Below are positions 3,501 to 17,803 of a DNA stretch of 20,000 nt, piece by piece. Within the stretch, counting starts at the first letter, position 1. Each line of letters opens with the position of its first letter. Position numbers and translations under genes: made by a program. The stretch is taken from NCBI GenBank assembly GCA_964576115.1, contig CAZNUA010000012.1, forward strand, positions 55,731 to 75,730. Reading direction: 5' to 3'. The stretch comes from an uncultured Gemmatimonadota bacterium. GTDB taxonomy: Bacteria > Blakebacterota > Blakebacteria > Blakebacterales > Blakebacteraceae. Below the pieces are notes generated by a model, which was not told the origin of the DNA, ran no database searches, and was given only the letters and a program-made list of their open reading frames with translations.

Positions 3501-3780
3501 CCGTCTGGCGAGCGAGATATCGGGCTGGACGGGGCTCCCCACCACCGATCAGCTGAACGAGGAAGAGTACTTCCGGGCGATGGTGGATACCCTGCGCGAG
3601 CGCCTGGAAGCCCTGCGGGAACGGCTCGGTGAGGCTGTGAAGCCCCGGCCGGGCCTTTCGGCCCCCGACCCCCCTCATCTCCCGGTCGGATTGAGGGATT
3701 GCGGGCGGGGATCCGAACGCGAGCTGCGTCAATTTGTTACACAGAGCTCTGAAGCGCGGGAATACGGACATAACATGTAA
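508..3780 (+). CDS. Exported VPS10/sortilin-like BNR (Asp-box) repeat beta-propeller protein (GH74-like glycosyl hydrolase annotation)
   Basis: AAGGAGG at 493-499 lies 8 nt before ATG 508. The N-terminus has a basic then hydrophobic signal (RARRVTFIAFLLALALAC). Family start motif RGIGPANMSGRVVD. Many Asp-boxes (WKTDNNGVTF, YRSTDGGRSW, YRTTDGGRSW, WKSTDSGRNW, WRSTDRGRTW, YRSEDRGQNW). Also YGGLQDNGSW, GGGDGF and LVLGTHGRGIWILD, with a helical C-terminal tail. Confidence 0.9.
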   Translation: MIAFSPVNRTCRGSARARRVTFIAFLLALALACGPGIVPGTVSRVAAQRAPDVSGELFGQLALRGIGPANMSGRVVDLAVFESDPTLFYVATATGGLWKTDNNGVTFTCVFEREAVHSIGAVTLCQTNPDLIWVGTGERANRQSSGWGNGVYRSTDGGRSWHNLGLRDSRHIGRIAIDPTDSDIVFVAAMGHLWGPNAERGLYRTTDGGRSWEQVLFIDDDTGVVDVAIDPDDPSIVYAATYQRRRRTFGFHGGGPGSGLWKSTDSGRNWCELTRGLPEGDKGRIGISIYRRDPRIVYVCVEQGWRYNASTAYGERRAGVYRSEDRGENFTHMSDWNPRPMYASQIYVDPNDDRRVYMQNSFSVSTDAGQTFHSISNSLHGDDRIVWVDPADSRHLIKGDDGGLGISWDRAESFLYLPHLPVSQFYRVGVDYAEPFNIYGGLQDNGSWYGPSATYRREGILNEDWIRTGGGDGFFNVPDPADERTLYTESQYLMLSRRDLVTGESQSIRPGDPHGAIGARRNWDAWGPGLPEPELGNAMAPANWDGPFILSPHDPQTVYAGTDTLWRSTDRGRTWTSLGDMTTGTNRRELLIMGQRPHDETLSLDDGIPYWPTITAIEESPDVRGLLYVGTDDGNLQVSADNGQTWTNVADRFPGLPGPRWVSDIEASHYRVGVVYAAFDGHRSDDNGNYLYRSEDRGQNWRSITGDLPPERVVRAVHEDPRNPEVLWLGTEFGCFVTLDGGGHWVELKNNLPTVAVNDLLVHPRDNDLVLGTHGRGIWILDNVNALQELTPGVVASPVHLFTIEPAVMIRLQSEKAHSGDMIFRGPNPPAGAIIDFWLSADDPADFSLEVLDAAGQWVADVRVRSPRRGINRAVWNLRCSPFYAGPGRERAERSGTSFLITPGEYTVRLQGGGTVCEQILEVSEDPRIPATTTERRAWTQKLLSLGDLIRDCGVLVQEINEAAPLAEALRESRRNRELKTEAAELQRMGRELSSRIRRLASEISGWTGLPTTDQLNEEEYFRAMVDTLRERLEALRERLGEAVKPRPGLSAPDPPHLPVGLRDCGRGSERELRQFVTQSSEAREYGHNM

Positions 3781-3862
3781 GTACTTTCATTGTATTTATG
3801 TTTTTTCGCGGTTTTTCCCTGTTTCTGAAGAGAGAGTTCCTTAGGTTGAAAATAACGTTCAT
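3765..3862. promoter_or_regulatory. AT-rich intergenic promoter/operator region upstream of the aminomutase operon
   Basis: GC content drops sharply here. Palindrome AAGTACTT (3779-3786) sits inside the inverted pair ACATAA (3768-3773) / TTATGT (3796-3801). TTGAAA at 3846-3851 is -35-like. No unambiguous -10 element. Confidence 0.4.
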
Positions 3863-3870
3863 CTTCCGCA

Positions 3871-3946
3871 GTCTCGGTACGGGGCGGGTTCAGAGTGGAC
3901 CCGCAACCCGTCAGGCCCGCCCGGTACCCCGCGGGCTCTGCGAGAC
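3871..3946 (+). promoter_or_regulatory. Candidate structured 5' leader (possible cis-regulatory RNA) with alternative pairings
   Basis: GGTACGGGGCGGG (3876-3888) pairs 12/13 with CCCGCCCGGTACC (3916-3928). Alternatively GCGGGTTCA-gag-TGGACCCGC (3884-3904) forms a hairpin, extended by ACGGG/CCCGT. GTCTC (3871-3875) / GAGAC (3942-3946) closes the region. Confidence 0.35.
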
Positions 3947-4049
3947 AAGTACCAGTATCCGAGCGCAATACCCCCGTCAGGTCAGGTGCGACTGCTCCTG
4001 TGCCTGTATACAGTGAACCACCACTCAGCCCCTCGAGGTGAATCACGTT

Positions 4050-5357
4050 ATGTCCCCGACAACCACGAATCGTGAAACGGTCATCGAGAGAATCTGTGAA
4101 GACGGCGTCACCGCCGACTGGAAGGACTGGCGCTGGCAGATCAAGAACGCGGTGAGGGATCTCGACACCCTGCAGCGGGTTCTCGATATCACCTTCGACG
4201 ACGAGGAGAGACTGGATCTGGAACGGACGGTGGCGAAGTTCCCCTTCTCAGCCACCCCGTACTATCTCTCCCTGATCGACACCGCCAATTACCGTAATGA
4301 CCCGGTCTTCAAACAGGCGGTGCCCGATCCCCTCGAACTGATCACCGAAAACTGCGAGATGACCGATCCCCTGGCCGAGGACAAGGACAGTCCGGTGCCG
4401 GGGATTACCCACCGGTACTACGACCGGGTTCTGTTGCTGGTCAGCAACACCTGTTCGATGTACTGCCGCCACTGCACGCGCAAGCGCAAGGTGGGCGATG
4501 CCGATTCGATCCCCACCCGCGATATCATCGACACCGGTCTCGACTACATCCGTTCCACTCCCCGGGTGCGCGACGTGCTGCTCTCGGGCGGCGATCCCCT
4601 CATGCTCAAGGACGAATACCTCGATTACATCCTGACCGAACTGGACGCCATCGACCACGTCGAGGTGGTCCGGATCGGAACCCGCATGCCGGCGGTCCTG
4701 CCCTTCCGGATCACCGACGAGCTGGTCGAGATGCTCAAACGTCACCACCCGCTGTGGGTCAACACCCACTTCAACCACCCCCGCGAGCTCTCGGGGTCAG
4801 CCCGAGCCGCCCTGGCCCGGCTGGCCGATGCCGGGATACCGCTGGGGAACCAGAGCGTGCTACTGGCCGGCGTGAACGACTGCCCGCGGATCATCAAGCG
4901 GCTCGGTCATCTACTGGTGCAGAACCGGGTCCGGCCCTACTACCTCTATCAGTGCGATCTCTCCGAGGGGCTGTCGCACTTCCGCACCCCGGTCGGCAAG
5001 GGGATCGAGATCATGGAGAACCTGATCGGTCACACCAGCGGGTTCTCGATCCCACGCTACGTGATCGACGCTCCCGAAGGTGGCGGCAAGATCCCGATTC
5101 AGCCCAACTACATGATCTCGCGCGGGACCAACAAGGTCGTCCTGCGTAACCACGAGGGCGTGATTACGGTCTACGAAGAACCCGACTCCTACCAGCAGAC
5201 CTTCTGCGACCGCAACTGCGCCGAGTGCGAGCTGGAGCTCGATCTCGACGAGGCCGGCGAGTACACCGCCACGGGGATCTACCAGCTTCTTTCCACCTGG
5301 GACGACACCATCAGCCTGACCCCCGAAGGAACAGAGCGCCTCGAGCGGCGCGACTGA
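4050..5357 (+). CDS. ablA: Lysine 2,3-aminomutase (radical SAM/PLP, KamA family, AblA-like C-terminus)
   Basis: RBS GAGGTG at 4035-4040, ATG at 4050. Motifs: [20 protein letters not shown]; radical [11 protein letters not shown] followed by [38 protein letters not shown] and [11 protein letters not shown] retain the two lysine-binding Asp residues and the PLP Lys of C. subterminale LAM. C-terminal Cys cluster CDRNCAEC. Confidence 0.9.
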
Positions 5358-5366
5358 GAGGACCGC

Positions 5367-5858
5367 ATGAGCACCCGCATTCTCATCGTCGGCAGCTGGG
5401 CCAAGGAGCAGATCACGGTCGAGAATATCAGGCGCGCGGACGACTACGAGGTCCATGCCTGGCTCGACACCAACAATCCCGGCATCACCGGTCAGGTGGA
5501 CGGCTTCGAGATCGGCAGTCTGTATGCGATCGACGAGATCGTGGACTACGCCGTCCGGCAGACCGTCGACCTGGTCCTGCCGACCACTGCGTCCCCGCTC
5601 TCGGCCGGGCTTGTCGATGCCCTCTCGGCCAAACAGGTGCCGGTCTTCGGTCCCGTCCGGGACGCCGCCCGGCTCGAATCGGACAAAGCCTGGACCCGCC
5701 GGCTGATGCAGAAGTGCTGTCCCGAGGCGATTCCCTCCTTCCGTGTCTTCACCGACCGGGACGAGGCCGTGGCTCATGCCCGCGAGCGCGACTTTGAAGT
5801 GGCCGTGAAGCCGACCGGTCTCACCGAAGGGCTCGGGGTCAGGGTTTTCGGCGATCAG
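5367..5858 (+). CDS. PurD (GAR synthetase)-like ATP-grasp ligase, divergent paralog; N-terminal ~164 aa only, truncated by the gap
   Basis: RBS GAGGA at 5358-5362; ATG is 9 nt after the ablA stop. Aligns by eye to the PurD N and B domains: RILIVGSWAKE (vs KVLVIGxGGRE), NNPGI, PLSAGLVDAL, VFGPVRDAARLESDKAWTRRLM, VAVKPTGLTEGLGVRV. Confidence 0.75.
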
Positions 5859-5958
5859 NNNNNNNNNNNNNNNNNNNNNNNNNNNNNNNNNNNNNNNNNN
5901 NNNNNNNNNNNNNNNNNNNNNNNNNNNNNNNNNNNNNNNNNNNNNNNNNNNNNNNNNN
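5859..5958. other. Scaffold gap (100 N), real missing sequence of unknown length
   Basis: Flanks are not duplicated. The PurD-like gene enters the gap with less than half of a typical PurD length (~420 aa) and does not re-emerge. Confidence 0.9.
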
Positions 5959-5959
5959 C

Positions 5960-6448
5960 ATGACCCTGACAATCCGACAGGCCCGTGAGGACGATTTCCT
6001 CCGGGTTCATGCCTTCATCGACCGCTGTGAGATCCTCGTCACACATCCCGAACACGTCTATCGGATCATTTTGCGTTATTTCGCCGACAGCTGTTACGTG
6101 GCCGAGCGCGACGGCGAGATCGTCGGTTTCCAGATGGGCTTTCTCTCCCAGCGCCACCCCGGAACGTATTTCCTCTGGCAGATCGGAACCGATCCCGCCC
6201 TGCGTCGCCAGGGAGTCGGCCGGGCCCTGCTGGCGCACGCCGAGGAGGATCTGCGCGACAGCGGTTGCGAGCGGATCGAGGTCACCATCGATCCCGAGAA
6301 CGTCGCGTCTGTCCGGATGTTCGAAAAACGGGGCTATGTCAATATCAGCCGCCGCGAAGGCGACACGGTCGAAGTGAACGATATGACAGCCGTGAAAGAT
6401 TTCTACAGCCCCGGCCGCCACTTTGTCCTGCTCGAGAAGGTCCTGTAA
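5960..6448 (+). CDS. GNAT N-acetyltransferase resembling EctA (diaminobutyrate acetyltransferase) family
   Basis: YFADSCYVAERDGEIVGFQMGF, PGTYFLWQIGTDPALRRQGVGRALL (acetyl-CoA motif A, RxxGxG) and IEVTIDPENVASVRMFEK match the EctA-type pattern FADT.VVAE..GE.VGF / T.FVWQVAV / TI...N.AS..LF. The ATG is at the gap edge, so the true start is uncertain. Confidence 0.85.
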   Translation: MTLTIRQAREDDFLRVHAFIDRCEILVTHPEHVYRIILRYFADSCYVAERDGEIVGFQMGFLSQRHPGTYFLWQIGTDPALRRQGVGRALLAHAEEDLRDSGCERIEVTIDPENVASVRMFEKRGYVNISRREGDTVEVNDMTAVKDFYSPGRHFVLLEKVL

Positions 6449-6526
6449 GATACAGCCTGTCACAGGTCCGGGTACGGTCCAGACGATCCGGATGATCTCA
6501 GACTGTCTGACGGACTCGATGCCGGC

Positions 6527-6616
6527 GTGAAGAGCGCTTTCAACCGGCCGCTTTTCGCCAGCTATCTCCTGATCGTGATCCTGGTTCTGCTGCCGGTTCT
6601 GATACTCCTCTTCTGA
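6527..6616 (+). CDS. Candidate 29-aa single-pass membrane peptide (MKSAFNRPLFASYLLIVILVLLPVLILLF)
   Basis: Translated manually: GTG 6527 to TGA 6614-6616. Basic N-terminus followed by a strongly hydrophobic stretch of about 20 aa, with mostly G/C-ending codons. The RBS is weak. Not in the ORF track. Confidence 0.4.
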   Translation: MKSAFNRPLFASYLLIVILVLLPVLILLF

Positions 6617-6834
6617 TCGGCGCCGTCGCCGGCTTCCTGTCCGCTCGATGGACCAGCCGGGTCGCGTTCGAAGGGCCCGCGATTTTCCGGTAACTATTTC
6701 GACCGTGGGATCGTTCAATACATCAGTTCGTGATATCACTTTCATAGGTCATGGCCGGGAACGTGGCCGGGAGCCAGACGAGTATCCTTCTCCTCTTTCG
6801 GTGCGACCGGGTTTCGAGAGTCAGGAGTCAGACG

Positions 6835-7179
6835 GTGAGCGGTATCGATAGTATTTACGGAACGGTCGATCTGATGATCCTGCAGACGCTGCAGGCAGAA
6901 GGCCCGCTGCACGGCCTGGGGATCGCCGAGGAGATCCACCGGGTCTCGGAAACCGAGGTCAGCGTGGAAGACAGCGCGCTGTACCCCGCTCTGCGCCGGC
7001 TCGAGGAGCAGGGTCTGATCGAGGGGGAATGGAAGATCTCCGAGCGCGGACGGCGGGCCCGGTTCTACGATCTGACACCGCGCGGACGAGAACACCTCGA
7101 TGTCCAGACGAAGGAATGGGCCCGGCGGGTGGGCGTCATCGGCCGCGTGCTCGGCTTCGGGGGGGTGAGGATCCGATGA
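6835..7179 (+). CDS. PadR-family transcriptional regulator (acidobacterial type)
   Basis: AGGAG at 6823-6827 before GTG 6835. GTVDLMILQTL, PLHGLGIAEEI, SALYPALRRLEEQGLIEGEW, RRARFYDLTPRGR; 114 aa. Directly upstream of an ADOP permease. Confidence 0.9.
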   Translation: MSGIDSIYGTVDLMILQTLQAEGPLHGLGIAEEIHRVSETEVSVEDSALYPALRRLEEQGLIEGEWKISERGRRARFYDLTPRGREHLDVQTKEWARRVGVIGRVLGFGGVRIR

Positions 7180-9725
7180 AGAACCCTGCTGGCCGTACTG
7201 ACCCTCGCCCTGGGCATCGGTTCGGTCACCGTCATCTTCAGCGTGGTGAACGCCGTGCTCATCAGACCGTTGCCGTACGAGGATCCCGACGGGCTGGTGC
7301 AGATCATGGAACGGGTCGAGACCGTCTCGCCCACGATACCGGTCTCGCAGGGTCTCTTCCTTGCCCTGCGGGAGCAGACCACCACCCTGGCCGGCCTGGC
7401 CGCTTCGGATTTCGTGACCTTCTCGGTGATCGGCGGAGAGGAACCCGTCCAGGAACCGGGGGTCATGACGACGGCCGACTTCTTCACTCTTCTCGGCGCC
7501 CGCCCCGAACTCGGCCGCTTCTTCACCCGGGAGGAGGAAACCGCCGGATCGAACGGCGTGGCGGTGCTGAGCTTCGGTGCCTGGCAGAGCCTCTTCGCCG
7601 GTGATCCCGAGGTCATCGGCCGGCGGATCCGGTTGATCACGACCTACCAATACGGTCCGCCGCGCAGTCTGCCCGAGGAGGTGACCGTTATCGGCGTGCT
7701 CGGGGAGGATTTCGTCTCCCCGTACGGGAATACCCGTATCTTCGTTCCCCTGGGGATACAGGGGGAGCGTGAGAACAGGATGCACCAGTACCTCTGGCTT
7801 CTGGGGCGGCTTGGTCCCGGCACGACCGCTGAAACCGCCCGCGCCGAGATGGATGTGATCGTCCAGGGAGTCGATCCCCAGTTCAGGGGGACGAGAGGTA
7901 ATGAAGACTGGGACAACGGCGTCACCCTGACCTCGTTCTGGGAGGTCCAGCGGGGATACCTCCGCAGCTCCCTCCAGATCTTCTTCGTGGCGGTAGGTCT
8001 GCTGCTGCTGGTGGGATGCGCCAATATCGCCAACCTGCTTCTGGCCCGCGGTNNNNNNNNNNNNNNNNNNNNNNNNNNNNNNNNNNNNNNNNNNNNNNNN
8101 NNNNNNNNNNNNNNNNNNNNNNNNNNNNNNNNNNNNNNNNNNNNNNNNNNNNTCTGCTGCTGCTGGTGGGATGCGCCAATATCGCCAACCTGCTTCTGGC
8201 CCGCGGTGCCGGCCGCGGCCGGGAGATGGCCGTGCGGCTCGCCATCGGCGCTTCGCGCCGCCGGCTCGTCCGGACCCTGCTGATCGAGAACGCCCTGCTG
8301 GCCGCGGTCGGGATTGCGGTCGGTCTTTTCCTCACCTGGGTGGGGATCCGGCTGCTCGTCGCGGTCTATCCGAGCGCCGTCCTGCAGCGGACCGGCGTGG
8401 GACTCGATCTGCCCGTTCTGCTCTTCGCCGCCGGAGTGGGGGCGGTGAGCGTGCTCCTCTTCGGTCTCGCACCTGCCCTGCAGACGTCCCGGGTCAGCCC
8501 CGGTACGACCCTGCAGACGGGCGGGCGGACCCTGTCGGCGAGCCGGGGGCAGCGGCGTCTGCGCAGCACGCTGCTCGTCATCGAAGTGTCCCTGGCCGTC
8601 ATCCTCACGGTCGGCACCGGCCTGCTGCTGCGCAGTCTGCATAACATGATGCACGTCGAGTTGGGCTTCGAACCCGGGAACCTCATCATGATGCAGCTCC
8701 CCCTTGATCCATCGGCGTATCCGGCGCGGGAACATCAACTCGAGTTCGGGCGGCAGCTGCACGAAAGGCTCACCGCCCTGCCCGAGGTCGAACAGGCCGG
8801 ATCGTTCGATTTCCTGCCCTTCAGCGGGGCGGCGCCGGGGATCTACTTCCAGATCCCCGATCACCCCGATCCCGAACGGCAGCAGCAGACCATGGGCCTG
8901 CTGCGGACCGCCGGTCCGGGAGCCCTCGAAGCGCTGGGGGCGCGGCTGCTCACCGGGCGGTGGTTCGAAGAGGCGGATCTGGCGATCACCCCCGACGTGG
9001 TCATCATCGACCGCACCTTGGCCGAGCGGTACTGGCTCGACGGCGATGCCGTGGGCCGCCGCATCAACCTCATCACCCGCACGCCGTGGCCCCCGGTGAC
9101 GGTGATCGGGGTGGTGGAGACCATGAGGCTGCTGGACTTCGGGAGCGACGGGAATCCCGGTCTCTTTTTCCCGACGCACTACTCGCAGAGTGCCGGCGTG
9201 GTCGTGCGCACCCGGTTCGAGCCGGCGGATTTCGCCGAGCGCCTGCGTGCCGTCGTCGCCGACCTCGATTCCGATATCCCCCGCGGCGATATCCGGATCA
9301 TGGAGACGGTGCTGCGTGATTCCTCCTCGACCCAGCGTTTCCGGGCCATTCTGCTGGGTTTCTTCGGCGGTCTCACCCTTCTGCTCGCCCTGGTGGGGGT
9401 CTACGGCGTGCACAATTACACTGTGACCCAGCGCACGCACGAGATCGGTCTGCGCATGACCCTGGGAGCCCGCAGATCTGGCCTGCTCCGCCTCATCCTC
9501 TTCGAGGCGGGCCGCCTGACCGGACTGGGGATCGTGCTCGGGATCGGCGCGTCACTGGCCCTGAACCGGCTCATCCGCTCGTTCCTCTTCAACCTGAGCC
9601 CGACCGATTTGCTGACCTACGCGGCGGTCGCGGTGGCGATCCTCATCGTCACCGGGATCGCCAGCCTCCTGCCCGCCTGGCGGGCCAGCCGGGTCGATCC
9701 GGTCGTGACGCTGCGGGTGGATTGA
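7180..9725 (+). CDS. ADOP-type (MacB/FtsX-like, internally duplicated) ABC permease; ~800 aa once the gap duplication is collapsed; start codon problematic
   Basis: LAVLTLALGIGSVTVIFSVVNAVLIRPLPY, LLLVGCANIANLLLARGAGRGREMAVRLAIGASRRRLVR, LLLALVGVYGV, QRTHEIGLRMTLGA, LLPAWRASRVDPVVTLR. The halves join in frame after removing 155 nt (100 N plus a 55-bp duplicate). There is no adjacent ABC ATPase gene. Confidence 0.88.
7998..8207. other. Assembly artefact: 100-N gap (8053-8152) flanked by an exact 55-bp duplication (7998-8052 = 8153-8207)
   Basis: TCTGCTGCTGCTGGTGGGATGCGCC...GGCCCGCGGT is identical on both sides of the gap. Confidence 0.92.
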
Positions 9726-14165: not shown

Positions 14166-17100
14166 ATGGCCTCTCGTGCCGATCAACCTGAAGTAACGAC
14201 CACGAAGAATCCGCAGCTGCTGGCCGAAATCATCTCCCGTCGCCAGCCTGAAGATGAGAGAGGGATGGTTCTCGACCGGATGGTCGGTGAGGGAATGAAG
14301 CAGATGCTGGCCCGCCATCTGCTGGGGGAGAGCCCCTTCGCGGAGTTGAACCACATCCTGCTGGCTGCGGTTGTGACTTTCATCATCTGGCCCTCGGTAC
14401 CGTTCCCGACAATCGGCGCCTGGGCAGGGGCNNNNNNNNNNNNNNNNNNNNNNNNNNNNNNNNNNNNNNNNNNNNNNNNNNNNNNNNNNNNNNNNNNNNN
14501 NNNNNNNNNNNNNNNNNNNNNNNNNNNNNNNCTTTCATCATCTGGCCCTCGGTACCGTTCCCGACAATCGGCGCCTGGGCAGGGGCGATCGTGCTCGTGA
14601 CCGGTTTCCGGATCGTGATGAGACAGCGGATCACCCGCACCATTGCCGACCCGGAGCGGGCCACCGGGCGGATCCGCTTCTGCATCACCCTGCAGGGGCT
14701 GGCCTGGGGCCTCGGCACCTTCGCCGTCGCCCCTCTCCTGCCGGCCCGGGATCTGGCCCTGGTCATGGTGGTCTTCGCGGGACTGGTGACCGGCGCGACG
14801 GTGGTCCTCAACACCGACTACCTCGCCTTCAGGCTCTTCGCCGCCGCGATGCTGCTGCCTCTCGCAGCCGCCATCCTGCTCAGCGGAACCACCCGGTTCC
14901 ACCTCGTGGCTGCCCTGCTGGTGTTGTTCTTCATTCTCATGACTTCGATCCTGCACCGCCGCCTGCACCACCAGGTCATCAGCCATCTCAGCGCCCGCAA
15001 GCGGCTGGAGTACAGCGAGAAAGTCGTCGAGCAGGAGAAGAACTACCTCAATGCGGTCTTCATGCACGCTCCGATCGCGATCGCCACCCTCGACACCGAC
15101 GGCCGGGTCATCGAGGTCAATCCGGGCTTCGAGAAGCTCTTCGGCTATTCGGCCGGGGAAGTGGTCGGGATCGAACTGAACCGGTTGGTGGTGCCCGAAG
15201 AGGAACTCGATCGCAGCCGTCTGCTGGATCGCCAGCTCTCGACGACCGAACCCACCGTGATCGAAGTCGTGCGCCGGTGCAAGGACGGCACCCTGATCGA
15301 GGTGAAGGCTTCCGGGACCATCACCGGAGAGTCCGAGGACGCTCTCATCTTCGTTCTCTACGACGATCTGACCGAGATCCGCCAGGCGCAGGCAGCCCTG
15401 CGCGAGACCGAGGAGCAGTACCGCAAGCTGATCGAATCGGCCTCTGACGTCGTCTGGCAGGTGGATGGCGAAGGGCGGTGGACTTTTCTGAACACCGCCG
15501 CCGAAGAGGTCTTCACGGCCGACCGGGACGACCTGCTCGGCCGGTCCTTCCTGGAGATGATGCCGCCCGACCAGCACGAGGCGGCCGGCGAGAGTTTCCG
15601 GCGGATTCTGGCGGGACAGGATCTCATCGATTTCGAAACCGTCTTTCTCACCTCGACCGGAGAGATGCGGCACATCAGTTTCTCGGGCCGGCCGATCCAC
15701 GATCCCGCGACCGGGCAGAGCGTCGGCGCCCGGGGGATCGCCCGCGATGTGACCGCCCGGGTCGAAGCGCGTCAGGCGCTGGAAGACGCCCGGTCTGCGG
15801 CCGAGCGACTGGCCGAAACACGGAGCAGCTTCCTGGCCAACATGAGCCACGAGATCCGTACCCCCATGAACGGGATCCTCGGCATGACCGAGCTTCTGCT
15901 CGATTCCGATCTGACCCCCGAACAGCGACAATCGGCTCAGCTCATCCAGACTTCGGCCGAGGCTCTGCTGCGGATCCTGAACGACATCCTCGATTTCTCC
16001 CGGATGGAAGCGGGTCAATACGAAATCGAACGCACCAGCTTCAATCTGCCCGCCCTCGTGGACTCCACCTTGAGAACCTTCGCCGTGCGGGCTTTCGAGC
16101 AGGGTCTGGAGCTGGTTTCCGACATGCACGGCGACACCCCCCACCAGGTCATCGGCGACCCGGGCCGCATCCGGCAGGTCCTCAACAACCTGGTTGGAAA
16201 CGCGCTCAAATTCACTCCCGAGGGGGAGGTGAGTGTCGCGGTCGCCCCGGTCGGGGAGCGGGAGGGCGCCGCCCTCATCAGGTTCACCGTCCGTGATACC
16301 GGCATCGGCATACCGGCTGAGAAACAGCAGCACATCTTCGAGGAATTCGCCCAGGCCGATTCCTCGACCACCCGCCACTATGGCGGAACGGGTCTGGGAC
16401 TGGCCATCTCCAGCGGTATCGTCCGCCTCATGGGGGGTGAGATCGAACTCGAGAGCGAGGTGGGGCAGGGGAGTGTGTTCAGGTTCGAGATCCCTCTCGA
16501 AATCGAAGCGGCCGACCTGCGTCCCGTTCCCGAGCGCGAAAAAGTGATCCTGGAGGGGATCCGGGTTCTGATGGTGGACGACAACGCCACCAACCGGCGG
16601 ATCGTGAGACAGATGCTGGACGGACTCGGTCTTGAGATCGAGGATGCCGAAGAAGCTGAAGCCGGGCTGGCGAAGCTGCGCGCCGCTGTCGAAAAGGAGC
16701 ACCCCTTCGACCTGGCCGTCATAGACGGTCACATGCCCGGGCGCGACGGCTTCGAGATGGCGTCGGTCATCCGGTCCGAAACCCGGATTGCGGGAACGAA
16801 GCTGATGATGCTGACCTCGGCGGCCCGTAAAGGCGACGGCCAGCGGTGCCGCGAGCTGGGGATACACGCCTATCTGACCAAACCGGTCGCGCGCCCTGAT
16901 CTGCTGGAGGCAATCGTGATGGTACTCGGTGAAAAAGGTCCCGAAGAAAAAGCGGACACCCTCATTACCCGGCATTCGATCGAGGAGACCCGTCAGCACC
17001 GCCGGATCCTGCTGGCCGAAGACAACCCGGTCAACCAGAAGGTTGCCGCCACCATGCTTCGCAAGCGCGGCCATGAGGTCGAGGTCGTGGAGAACGGCCG

Positions 17101-17803
17101 TCTGGCTGTAGAGGCGGTACGAAAGCGGACCTACGACCTGGTGCTGATGGATGTGCAGATGCCCGAAATGGACGGTCTGGAGGCCGTGCAGGAGATCCGC
17201 CGCGATCGGGCTCTGGCGAACCTGCCGGTCATTGCGCTGACCGCTCACGCCCTGGAAGGAGACCGGGAGAAGTTCCTCGAGGCGGGGATGAACGGGTATC
17301 TCTCCAAACCCTTCAAGCCTCACGAGCTCTTCTCGACCGTCGAGGAGTGGACGGCCGGCAGAGACGAGGAGTCTGCGGAAGGGGGAGAGAAGCAGACAGG
17401 GGAGCGGGGTGTGCCGGGACCTGGAACCGATGGCAGTCCGCCGGTCGATCTGGAAAGCCTGCGGGCCACAATGCGAGAGGCCGGGGTCGAGGAAGCGGTT
17501 GACAGCATGCTCGAACTTTTTCTTGATGATTCTCCGGGCCGGATGGCCGACCTGCGGCGAGCCGTGGAGGCTTCGGACGTTGAAGCAACGGCCAAAACCG
17601 CCCACGCCTACAAATCGGCGGCGGCCACGATCGGGGCCGCGACTCTGGCCGAACTGCTCAAGGAGATCGAACTCGAATCCAAAGAGGGAAACATAGCTCG
17701 CGCGGGCGAGCTTCTGGCGCAGACCTCGGCGGAGCACGAGGCCGTGATCGCCTACCTGCAACCCCGTCTGCCAGAAGGAGGCCAGGATGACCGGGGAGCG
17801 TAA
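14166..17803 (+). CDS. Membrane-bound hybrid sensor histidine kinase (multi-TM, 2 PAS, HisKA, HATPase, 2 REC, HPt); 1160 aa once the gap is collapsed
   Basis: RBS GGGGAG before ATG 14166. H-box FLANMSHEIRTPMNGILG; N-box QVLNNLVGNALKFT; G1 DTGIGI; G2 GGTGLGLAIS. REC1 AVIDGHMPGRDG; REC2 VLMDVQMPEMDG; HPt AHAYKSAA. The frame is continuous (WAGAIVLVTG) after removing the gap and duplicate. Confidence 0.93.
14377..14586. other. Assembly artefact: 100-N gap (14432-14531) flanked by an exact 55-bp duplication (14377-14431 = 14532-14586)
   Basis: CTTTCATCATCTGGCCCTCGG...GGGCAGGGGC is identical on both sides of the gap. Confidence 0.92.

Follow-up and report, generated by a model that had tools for sequence, protein, structure and literature searches.

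Why should a gene for a lysine 2,3-aminomutase be followed by one for a ligase related to the purine enzyme PurD, and then by one for an acetyltransferase related to EctA? This arrangement occurs in a 20,000-nt stretch of contig CAZNUA010000012.1 (assembly GCA_964576115.1) from an uncultured Gemmatimonadota bacterium, referred to here as the window. Three genes follow one another on its forward strand: the aminomutase gene ablA, also called kamA (4050-5357, 435 aa), the 5′ part of a gene for a PurD-paralog ATP-grasp ligase (5367-5858, 164 codons) and, beyond a scaffold gap of 100 N (5859-5958), a gene for an EctA-like N-acetyltransferase of the GNAT family (5960-6448, 162 aa). An original prediction, made from the sequence alone, had proposed that these genes make an undescribed solute or conjugate derived from beta-lysine. 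On balance, we lean towards the view that the cassette carries out an ATP-dependent ligation, probably of a glycyl group, onto beta-lysine together with an N-acetylation, and that the predicted product is a compatible solute.

We analyzed how widely the arrangement is conserved. In a pattern scan that covered a single genome per species, 55 loci were returned. Six of them, with canonical-like ligases (26-45% identity), were dropped; the 49 family loci that were kept come from 48 metagenome-assembled genomes (MAGs) or genomes that span about 15 bacterial and archaeal groups at phylum level. By tblastn, a GNAT gene is directly downstream of the ligase gene or fused to it in 47 of the 49 loci, and the two without one (L047 and L063) both end at a contig end. 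Ligase and GNAT make up one fused open reading frame (ORF) in 22 loci. In one further case the aminomutase and the ligase are joined in an 890-aa ORF (L035:5901-8573) that scores 773 bits as AblA and 324 bits as PurD-like, although this fusion may instead represent a lost stop codon in the MAG. An AblA-like gene is present upstream of the ligase in 36 loci, with 63-71% identity to the AblA of the window in 32 of them and 35-49% in the other four. Among the 13 loci lacking it, two are cut at their 5′ end and the other 11, in which ligase and GNAT are fused, belong to a single clade; an AblA scoring above the family cut-off (762-784 bits) was found elsewhere in all five tested genomes that have no adjacent ablA. 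Clustering of 1057 neighbor ORFs revealed no fourth gene that recurs widely. The arrangement of the genes is far beyond chance, and the conserved synteny on which the original prediction depended proved to be strong.

The first gene encodes a protein with the Pfam domains LAM_C (135 bits) and Radical_SAM, and its product matches the lysine 2,3-aminomutase model TIGR03820 with 733 bits, well above the equivalog cut-off of 525.4. The rival models all gave scores below their cut-offs: 450 versus 650 for glutamate 2,3-aminomutase, 359 versus 600 for arginine 2,3-aminomutase and 242 versus 369 for EpmB (TIGR03821). The radical-SAM motif CxxxCxxC reads CSMYCRHC, and the alignment shows no variation at its three cysteines (C135, C139 and C142). 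As had been claimed for this enzyme, the lysine-type Asp motifs are both present, as YLYQCD (YQCD) and VIDAP; we take the two Asp residues to be the equivalents of Asp293 and Asp330 of the Clostridium enzyme, which bind the epsilon-amino group of lysine. It is the only AblA above cut-off in the window's genome, and it would supply the pathway with beta-lysine formed from L-lysine. Of the four divergent aminomutases found upstream of ligase genes at other loci, only that of L056 passes the AblA cut-off (562 bits) while the other three fall below it; all four keep Asp at both lysine-type positions. In a same-genus genome (G001, 83% complete), the sole AblA-like match is a KamA-family fragment at a contig end (L094:7114-7890); its two Asp positions are occupied by Lys and Thr, and it is hence not a lysine-type aminomutase. 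The cassette appears to be absent from this relative.

The ligase gene and the housekeeping purD are distinct paralogs. A canonical purD, whose presence elsewhere in the genome the original prediction had wanted confirmed, lies on another contig of the window's genome (G000:C8:91978-93240, 523 bits), and the five other cassette genomes that were checked likewise contain a canonical purD (415-540 bits) alongside the paralog (304-325 bits). The fragment in the window is only 35% identical to the genome's own PurD, versus 56-58% to genes of four MAGs that carry the labels of other phyla. It comprises GARS_N and the start of GARS_A and scores 96 bits over its 164 aa on the purD model TIGR00877 (cut-off 288), while full-length orthologues score 285-325 bits, on both sides of that cut-off. 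A word-indexed search with the full-length homologue of locus L019 (P0005) as the query listed 120 matches at 52-62% identity, 33 of which are 601-640 aa long and have GNAT domains. Most of these listed matches are nameless in their source; those with names are all called phosphoribosylamine--glycine ligase. In a quick maximum-likelihood tree, built without the window fragment and without four loci that are partial or frameshifted, 45 paralogs fall on one side of a branch with a Shimodaira-Hasegawa-like approximate likelihood ratio (SH-aLRT) support of 100 and are separated by it from 16 canonical PurDs. The paralogs adjoin two archaeal canonical PurDs in this tree, and bacterial and archaeal paralogs are intermixed. 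No pur genes adjoin the paralog in any of the loci examined. The ESM Atlas returned only generic clusters of GNAT plus ATP-grasp fusions and PurD folds, with no named cluster for this ligase family. Since most paralogs (304-325 bits) exceed the NCBIfam purD cut-off of 288, they receive the purD label in automated annotation and their genomes seem to hold two purD genes, so that metabolic reconstructions from MAGs count too many of them.

The gene in the window is interrupted by the scaffold gap, which the original prediction had feared might hide further genes such as ablB or might stem from a mis-join. Its reading of three co-directional genes, the first two 9 nt apart, agrees with the ORFs: the TGA stop codon of ablA (5355-5357) is followed by a 9-nt spacer (5358-5366) containing GAGGA, which resembles a ribosome-binding site, and by the ATG of the ligase at 5367, and the GNAT gene starts with an ATG at 5960, a single base past the end of the gap. 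The gap edges were read from Logan contigs of four metagenome runs (sediment and seawater), which may include the source sample and hence are not independent of the window; no RNA data set was among the sequencing runs listed. Contigs from the four runs extend 178-255 letters past 5858; by hand translation, the first 30 of these letters encode LQTPEDVVAY in frame, which fits the consensus GDQLKxExxVxxYI of the ligase family. On the other side, the 49 letters ahead of 5959 encode ..KSREVEALRS followed by TGA, again by hand translation, and fit the C-terminal family consensus SKxxxVxxLRx; the TGA stop of the ligase and the ATG of the GNAT overlap as ATGA. Full-length homologues of the ligase are 437-452 aa, from which it follows that about 265-280 codons of the ligase (about 0.8 kb) lie hidden in the gap. 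No contig in the four runs spans it, and about 0.5 kb is still unread. Taken together, these edges suggest that the gap holds only the rest of the ligase gene, and nothing hints at another gene there. Neither concern was borne out, given that both edges continue the ligase in frame and its stop codon overlaps the GNAT start; in view of the conserved synteny of the pair, it is not credible that a ligase fragment was mis-joined by chance to exactly the GNAT that belongs with it. The identification of the second gene as PurD-like stands, with the correction that its N-terminal 164 codons alone are visible and not a whole gene. Each of the four runs also contains a second version of the GNAT region on a separate contig (window 6175-6356), which differs at nine bases between 6205 and 6326 and has about one quarter of the depth; the co-occurrence of strains is the probable cause of the broken assembly and of the gap.

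What the ligase might do was approached by aligning 120 family members with 16 canonical PurDs. The roles of the residues that bind ATP, Mg and glycine were taken from passages on Geobacillus kaustophilus PurD (PMC8880213) and human GARS (PMC2978367). Eleven positions are invariant in both sets, including all 120 family members: E105, K108, K149, E193, E200, D220, K222, R299, D302 and E304, and also R390. The invariance of the ATP, Mg and glycine ligands implies that the paralog should still turn a small amino acid into an acyl-phosphate, the likeliest substrate being glycine, which PurD uses. Four other motifs, at the site proposed to bind phosphoribosylamine (PRA) in PurD and in the B-loop (the gamma-phosphate loop), have been replaced. 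The N-terminal loop GGREH of canonical PurDs (G and R in 16 of 16) is WAKEQ in the paralogs, with W12 and K14 in all 120; the helix motif GPE (16 of 16) is TTA in 119-120 of 120; the B-loop AAGK (GLAAGK, with K in 16 of 16) is T(E/D)GL, with L157 in 118 of 120; and the C-domain loop GGRV (G in 14 of 16) is (T/S)ERG, with E389 in 119 of 120. The fragment in the window shows WAKEQ, TTA and TEGL, within the family-specific motifs GSWAKEQ, TTASPL and GLTEGLGV, while the fourth signature lies in the gap. Further family-wide changes are found near the glycine site, where GG234-235 is replaced by AS and AGL282-284 by GQF. Through the replacements at the PRA site and B-loop, a Lys and a Glu are lost and two acidic residues gained; an acceptor pocket, if lined by all of the replaced residues, would be better suited to a cationic amine than to an anionic sugar phosphate. 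As the glycine site is kept and the site of the amine acceptor is changed, beta-lysine is therefore more likely to be the amine acceptor than the carboxyl donor. In the original prediction, beta-lysine or its acetyl form was ligated through an amide bond to another amine; the ligation by a PurD paralog is retained here, while the polarity is reversed.

The third gene encodes the constant partner of the ligase, a protein with an Acetyltransf_1 domain (80 bits). Its best NCBIfam match is EctA (TIGR02406) with 74.5 bits, below the cut-off of 120.6, and the nearest solved structure is also an EctA (6sjy/6sk1, E 2e-18), in agreement with its earlier description as EctA-like. The AblB model TIGR03827 gave no match to it at E<=0.01. 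The family is compact: a library clustered at 50% identity contains 19 representatives at E<=1e-30, beyond which the scores are those of generic EctA-like GNATs, and its members have a specific C-terminal motif, AVKDYYKPGRHF. The original prediction saw no ablB partner in the window, and a search found none throughout the window's genome (93.7% complete) or in three of the five other cassette genomes searched. This leaves the GNAT as the sole candidate found there for acetylating beta-lysine. Searches of the window's genome for KamD (PF09043) and EctC also gave no match, although they are uninformative in that the control genomes had no match either; for Kce (PF05853) there was again no match, while one control did match.

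Putting these enzymes together, we propose that AblA provides beta-lysine, that the PurD paralog would activate the small amino acid and join the resulting aminoacyl group, probably glycyl, to one of the beta-lysine amines at the cost of ATP, and that the EctA-like GNAT would acetylate a remaining free amine with acetyl-CoA. The product would be an N-acetylated dipeptide of the glycyl-beta-lysine type; with one glycyl and one acetyl group, its formula would be C10H19N3O4 and its [M+H]+ 246.145; the values computed for related compounds are 189.123 for acetyl-beta-lysine, 204.134 for glycyl-beta-lysine and 288.155 for the diacetyl-glycyl form. The choice of acyl donor, the nitrogens assigned to ligation and to acetylation, and the order of the steps are all parts of this prediction, and a role as an osmolyte is suggested by genomic context. 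As far as the original prediction spoke of an undescribed beta-lysine-derived solute or conjugate, it is supported by the conserved cassette, and neither an ablB or mis-join at the gap, nor a lone purD, nor a lack of synteny was found; its chemistry and its osmotic function retain the status of proposals.

Several observations weigh against our reading. An ablB lies beside the cassette in only three of the 49 loci, all of them from Methanoperedens, and in these it belongs to the same operon, which means that the GNAT is not simply a replacement for AblB there. The flanks of the cassette in the window, a Sortilin/BNR protein on one side and a PadR regulator with a MacB-like permease on the other, give no hint of osmotic stress. 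The cassette is accessory, because it was not found in 40 relatives, including the same-genus genome, among which the closest match to the window ligase has at most 37% identity. With 164 of about 445 codons visible, E105, K108 and K149 can be seen in the window ligase itself while the remaining ligand residues lie inside the gap, and most of its catalytic residues are predicted from homologues. That the glycine ligands are conserved is no proof of glycine as the substrate, and nearby positions are altered throughout the family. Finally, the tree that separates the paralogs was made with a quick method only, and its long branches meet.

Alternatively, the polarity of the ligation may be the opposite of the one we propose. 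The GNAT would then be a non-orthologous substitute for AblB that makes N-epsilon-acetyl-beta-lysine; the ligase would activate the carboxylate of beta-lysine or of its acetyl form and couple this to a further amine, be it ammonia, an amino acid or another beta-lysine molecule, in a manner similar to Ngg. EctA, the nearest relative of the GNAT, acetylates the distal amine of a short diamino acid, fusions of a GNAT to an ATP-grasp ligase are common, and the failure to find ablB in the window's genome and in three of the five others is in keeping with such a substitution. In the Omnitrophota locus L019, moreover, a 465-aa GATase_7 protein (782-2179) is encoded 179 nt upstream of ablA and is reminiscent of AsnO, the amidotransferase of the pathway for N-acetylglutaminylglutamine amide (NAGGN). 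However, this amidotransferase-like gene is present in 1 of 49 loci only, and the residues holding the amino and carboxyl groups of glycine are invariant in 120 of 120 family members while the PRA acceptor site is changed, which fits a new amine acceptor better than a new and much larger acyl donor. We therefore consider the opposite polarity less likely, yet a serious rival.

Beta-lysine occurs in several antibiotics and in the modification of elongation factor P (EF-P), and a product of the cassette might accordingly serve not as an osmolyte but as an antibiotic-like or signaling metabolite, as a nitrogen store, or in the modification of a macromolecule or of the envelope. The accessory and patchy distribution of the cassette and the neighbors of the cassette in the window would suit such a role. 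On the other hand, what recurs is a set of three small enzymes; among the clustered neighbor ORFs there are no conserved genes for nonribosomal peptide synthetases, resistance, export or tailoring, and the aminomutase is a full-length protein of the lysine 2,3-aminomutase type and not EpmB. The surroundings of the cassette at other loci also argue for osmotic function. Na+:solute symporters of the SSF family are encoded after a fused cassette (L046:5662-7080) and directly after ablA genes that are not linked to the ligase (L078:2767-4245 and L080:53-1483). A transporter of the major facilitator superfamily adjoins the cassette in three loci. In addition, ABC transporters were found near it in L055 and L062 and a P-type cation ATPase in L044. 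Other neighbors are MarR regulators, in L035 and L046.

A further context is that of Methanoperedens nitroreducens, where all genes are co-directional and occur in the order MscS-like channel, kamA, ablB, PurD-like ligase (17 nt past ablB), GNAT (overlapping the ligase) and a 604-aa member of the KamA family (L048). The ligase-GNAT pair is thus placed between the channel with kamA-ablB and another aminomutase. The 604-aa gene overlaps the end of the GNAT gene (L048:9822-11636), as it also does in L034, L036, L052 and L065. Its product has Lys and Asn at the two Asp positions, a pattern that we take to be the signature of glutamate 2,3-aminomutase, and scores 262 bits on the corresponding model (cut-off 650); it may represent a beta-glutamate branch of the Methanoperedens operon. 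Passages of PMC11337218 report that N-epsilon-acetyl-beta-lysine was identified in a Methanoperedens enrichment, that kamA and ablB of the ynaI-kamA-ablB operon of a Methanoperedens strain rise with salinity as determined by reverse transcription quantitative PCR (RT-qPCR), and that "genes of unknown function" lie 41 bp downstream of this operon. From these passages we infer that the downstream genes are the PurD-like and GNAT pair. With this context in view, we regard a role outside osmoprotection as improbable.

Lastly, it is hardly conceivable that the PurD-like gene is a plain second glycinamide ribonucleotide (GAR) synthetase in a meaningless position, or that the GNAT was joined to it in error during scaffolding: the paralogs do score around the purD cut-off and, where named, carry its name, and the run of N does part the ligase fragment from the GNAT, but PRA-site motifs that are invariant in 16 of 16 canonical PurDs are replaced in at least 118 of 120 paralogs, a canonical purD coexists with the paralog in 6 of 6 genomes checked, pur genes are missing from its surroundings, it is fused to a GNAT in 22 cases and to AblA in one, and both gap edges fit the ligase up to a stop codon overlapping the GNAT start.

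The proposed synthesis of an acetylated glycyl-beta-lysine can be compared with four known systems. In methanogens and Methanoperedens, AblA and AblB produce N-epsilon-acetyl-beta-lysine (Pfluger et al., 2003, as cited in passages of PMC11337218). The cassette shares the first enzyme of this pathway, with AblA above the equivalog cut-off, as well as the genetic coupling to a GNAT, and in Methanoperedens it is physically continuous with kamA-ablB. However, its acetyltransferase is a 162-aa EctA-like protein rather than AblB, and it always includes an ATP-grasp ligase, often fused to the GNAT, whereas the AblA/AblB pathway has none. Compared with PurD (TIGR00877; PDB 2ys6, 2yw2, 1gso and 2qk4), the paralog has the same GARS_N/A/C architecture and keeps the ligands at about 30-38% identity, being nearest to archaeal PurD, but its PRA-site motifs and B-loop lysine are replaced and its neighbors are ablA and the GNAT instead of pur genes. 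The synthesis of NAGGN by Ngg and AsnO follows a similar logic, in that an acetylated solute of the dipeptide type is built by an N-acetyltransferase together with an ATP-grasp ligase, the two often forming a single polypeptide. The likeness is one of logic only: with 26.4 bits on TIGR03103 against a cut-off of 569, the cassette protein is not a member of the Ngg family, its ATP-grasp part is of the PurD type, the order is ligase followed by GNAT, and the substrate comes from a radical-SAM aminomutase. EctA, the L-2,4-diaminobutyrate N-gamma-acetyltransferase, is the closest family and structure for the GNAT and acts on a short diamino acid, which it acetylates in a pathway leading to an osmolyte. 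In contrast to EctA proper, the cassette GNAT stays below the family cut-off (74.5 versus 120.6), has its own C-terminal motif and has neither ectB nor ectC next to its gene.

Our literature searches found no paper describing the cassette, or connecting kamA or beta-lysine to any ligase that is PurD-like or of the ATP-grasp type. Synthesis of beta-lysine-derived solutes is already known, and the new element is the repurposed PurD. We would tentatively, and with some reservation, go further and suggest a widespread but unrecognized solute pathway of anoxic and saline habitats, extending from Omnitrophota and Acidobacteriota to Methanoperedens and Asgard archaea, in which a PurD-derived amino-acid:beta-lysine ligase and an EctA-like acetyltransferase make a solute of the acetyl-glycyl-beta-lysine type. 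Osmoprotection by beta-lysine has been thought to need just AblA and AblB; the cassette suggests a second branch with an extra ligation and a different solute, possibly one that is commoner in bacteria. If this is true, salt-stress studies tracking only m/z 189 would have missed the acetyl-glycyl-beta-lysine-type solute, and the ligase would be annotated as purD throughout the databases despite its new role. A core enzyme of purine synthesis would also have been recruited to make a small molecule, for which we know of no earlier example. In Methanoperedens the cassette follows kamA-ablB, a pair shown to be salt-induced in this genus, and existing liquid chromatography-mass spectrometry (LC-MS) data could be re-mined for the predicted masses.

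We also inspected the surroundings of the cassette within the window. A promoter scan of positions 3600-6900 returned no sigma-70-like sites, and a terminator scan of the same region returned four terminator-like sites (1.7 expected), located inside genes or before ablA and of no further use. No signal of recent transfer was seen, with a GC content of 62.6% in the cassette and 64.5-64.9% in the flanks. Runs of 100 N occur three times in the window. Apart from the one inside the ligase gene, the gap at 8053-8152 interrupts a permease gene of the MacB/FtsX type downstream of the PadR regulator (6751-7179), and that at 14432-14531 is situated immediately ahead of a hybrid histidine kinase gene (14591-17803) or within its start.

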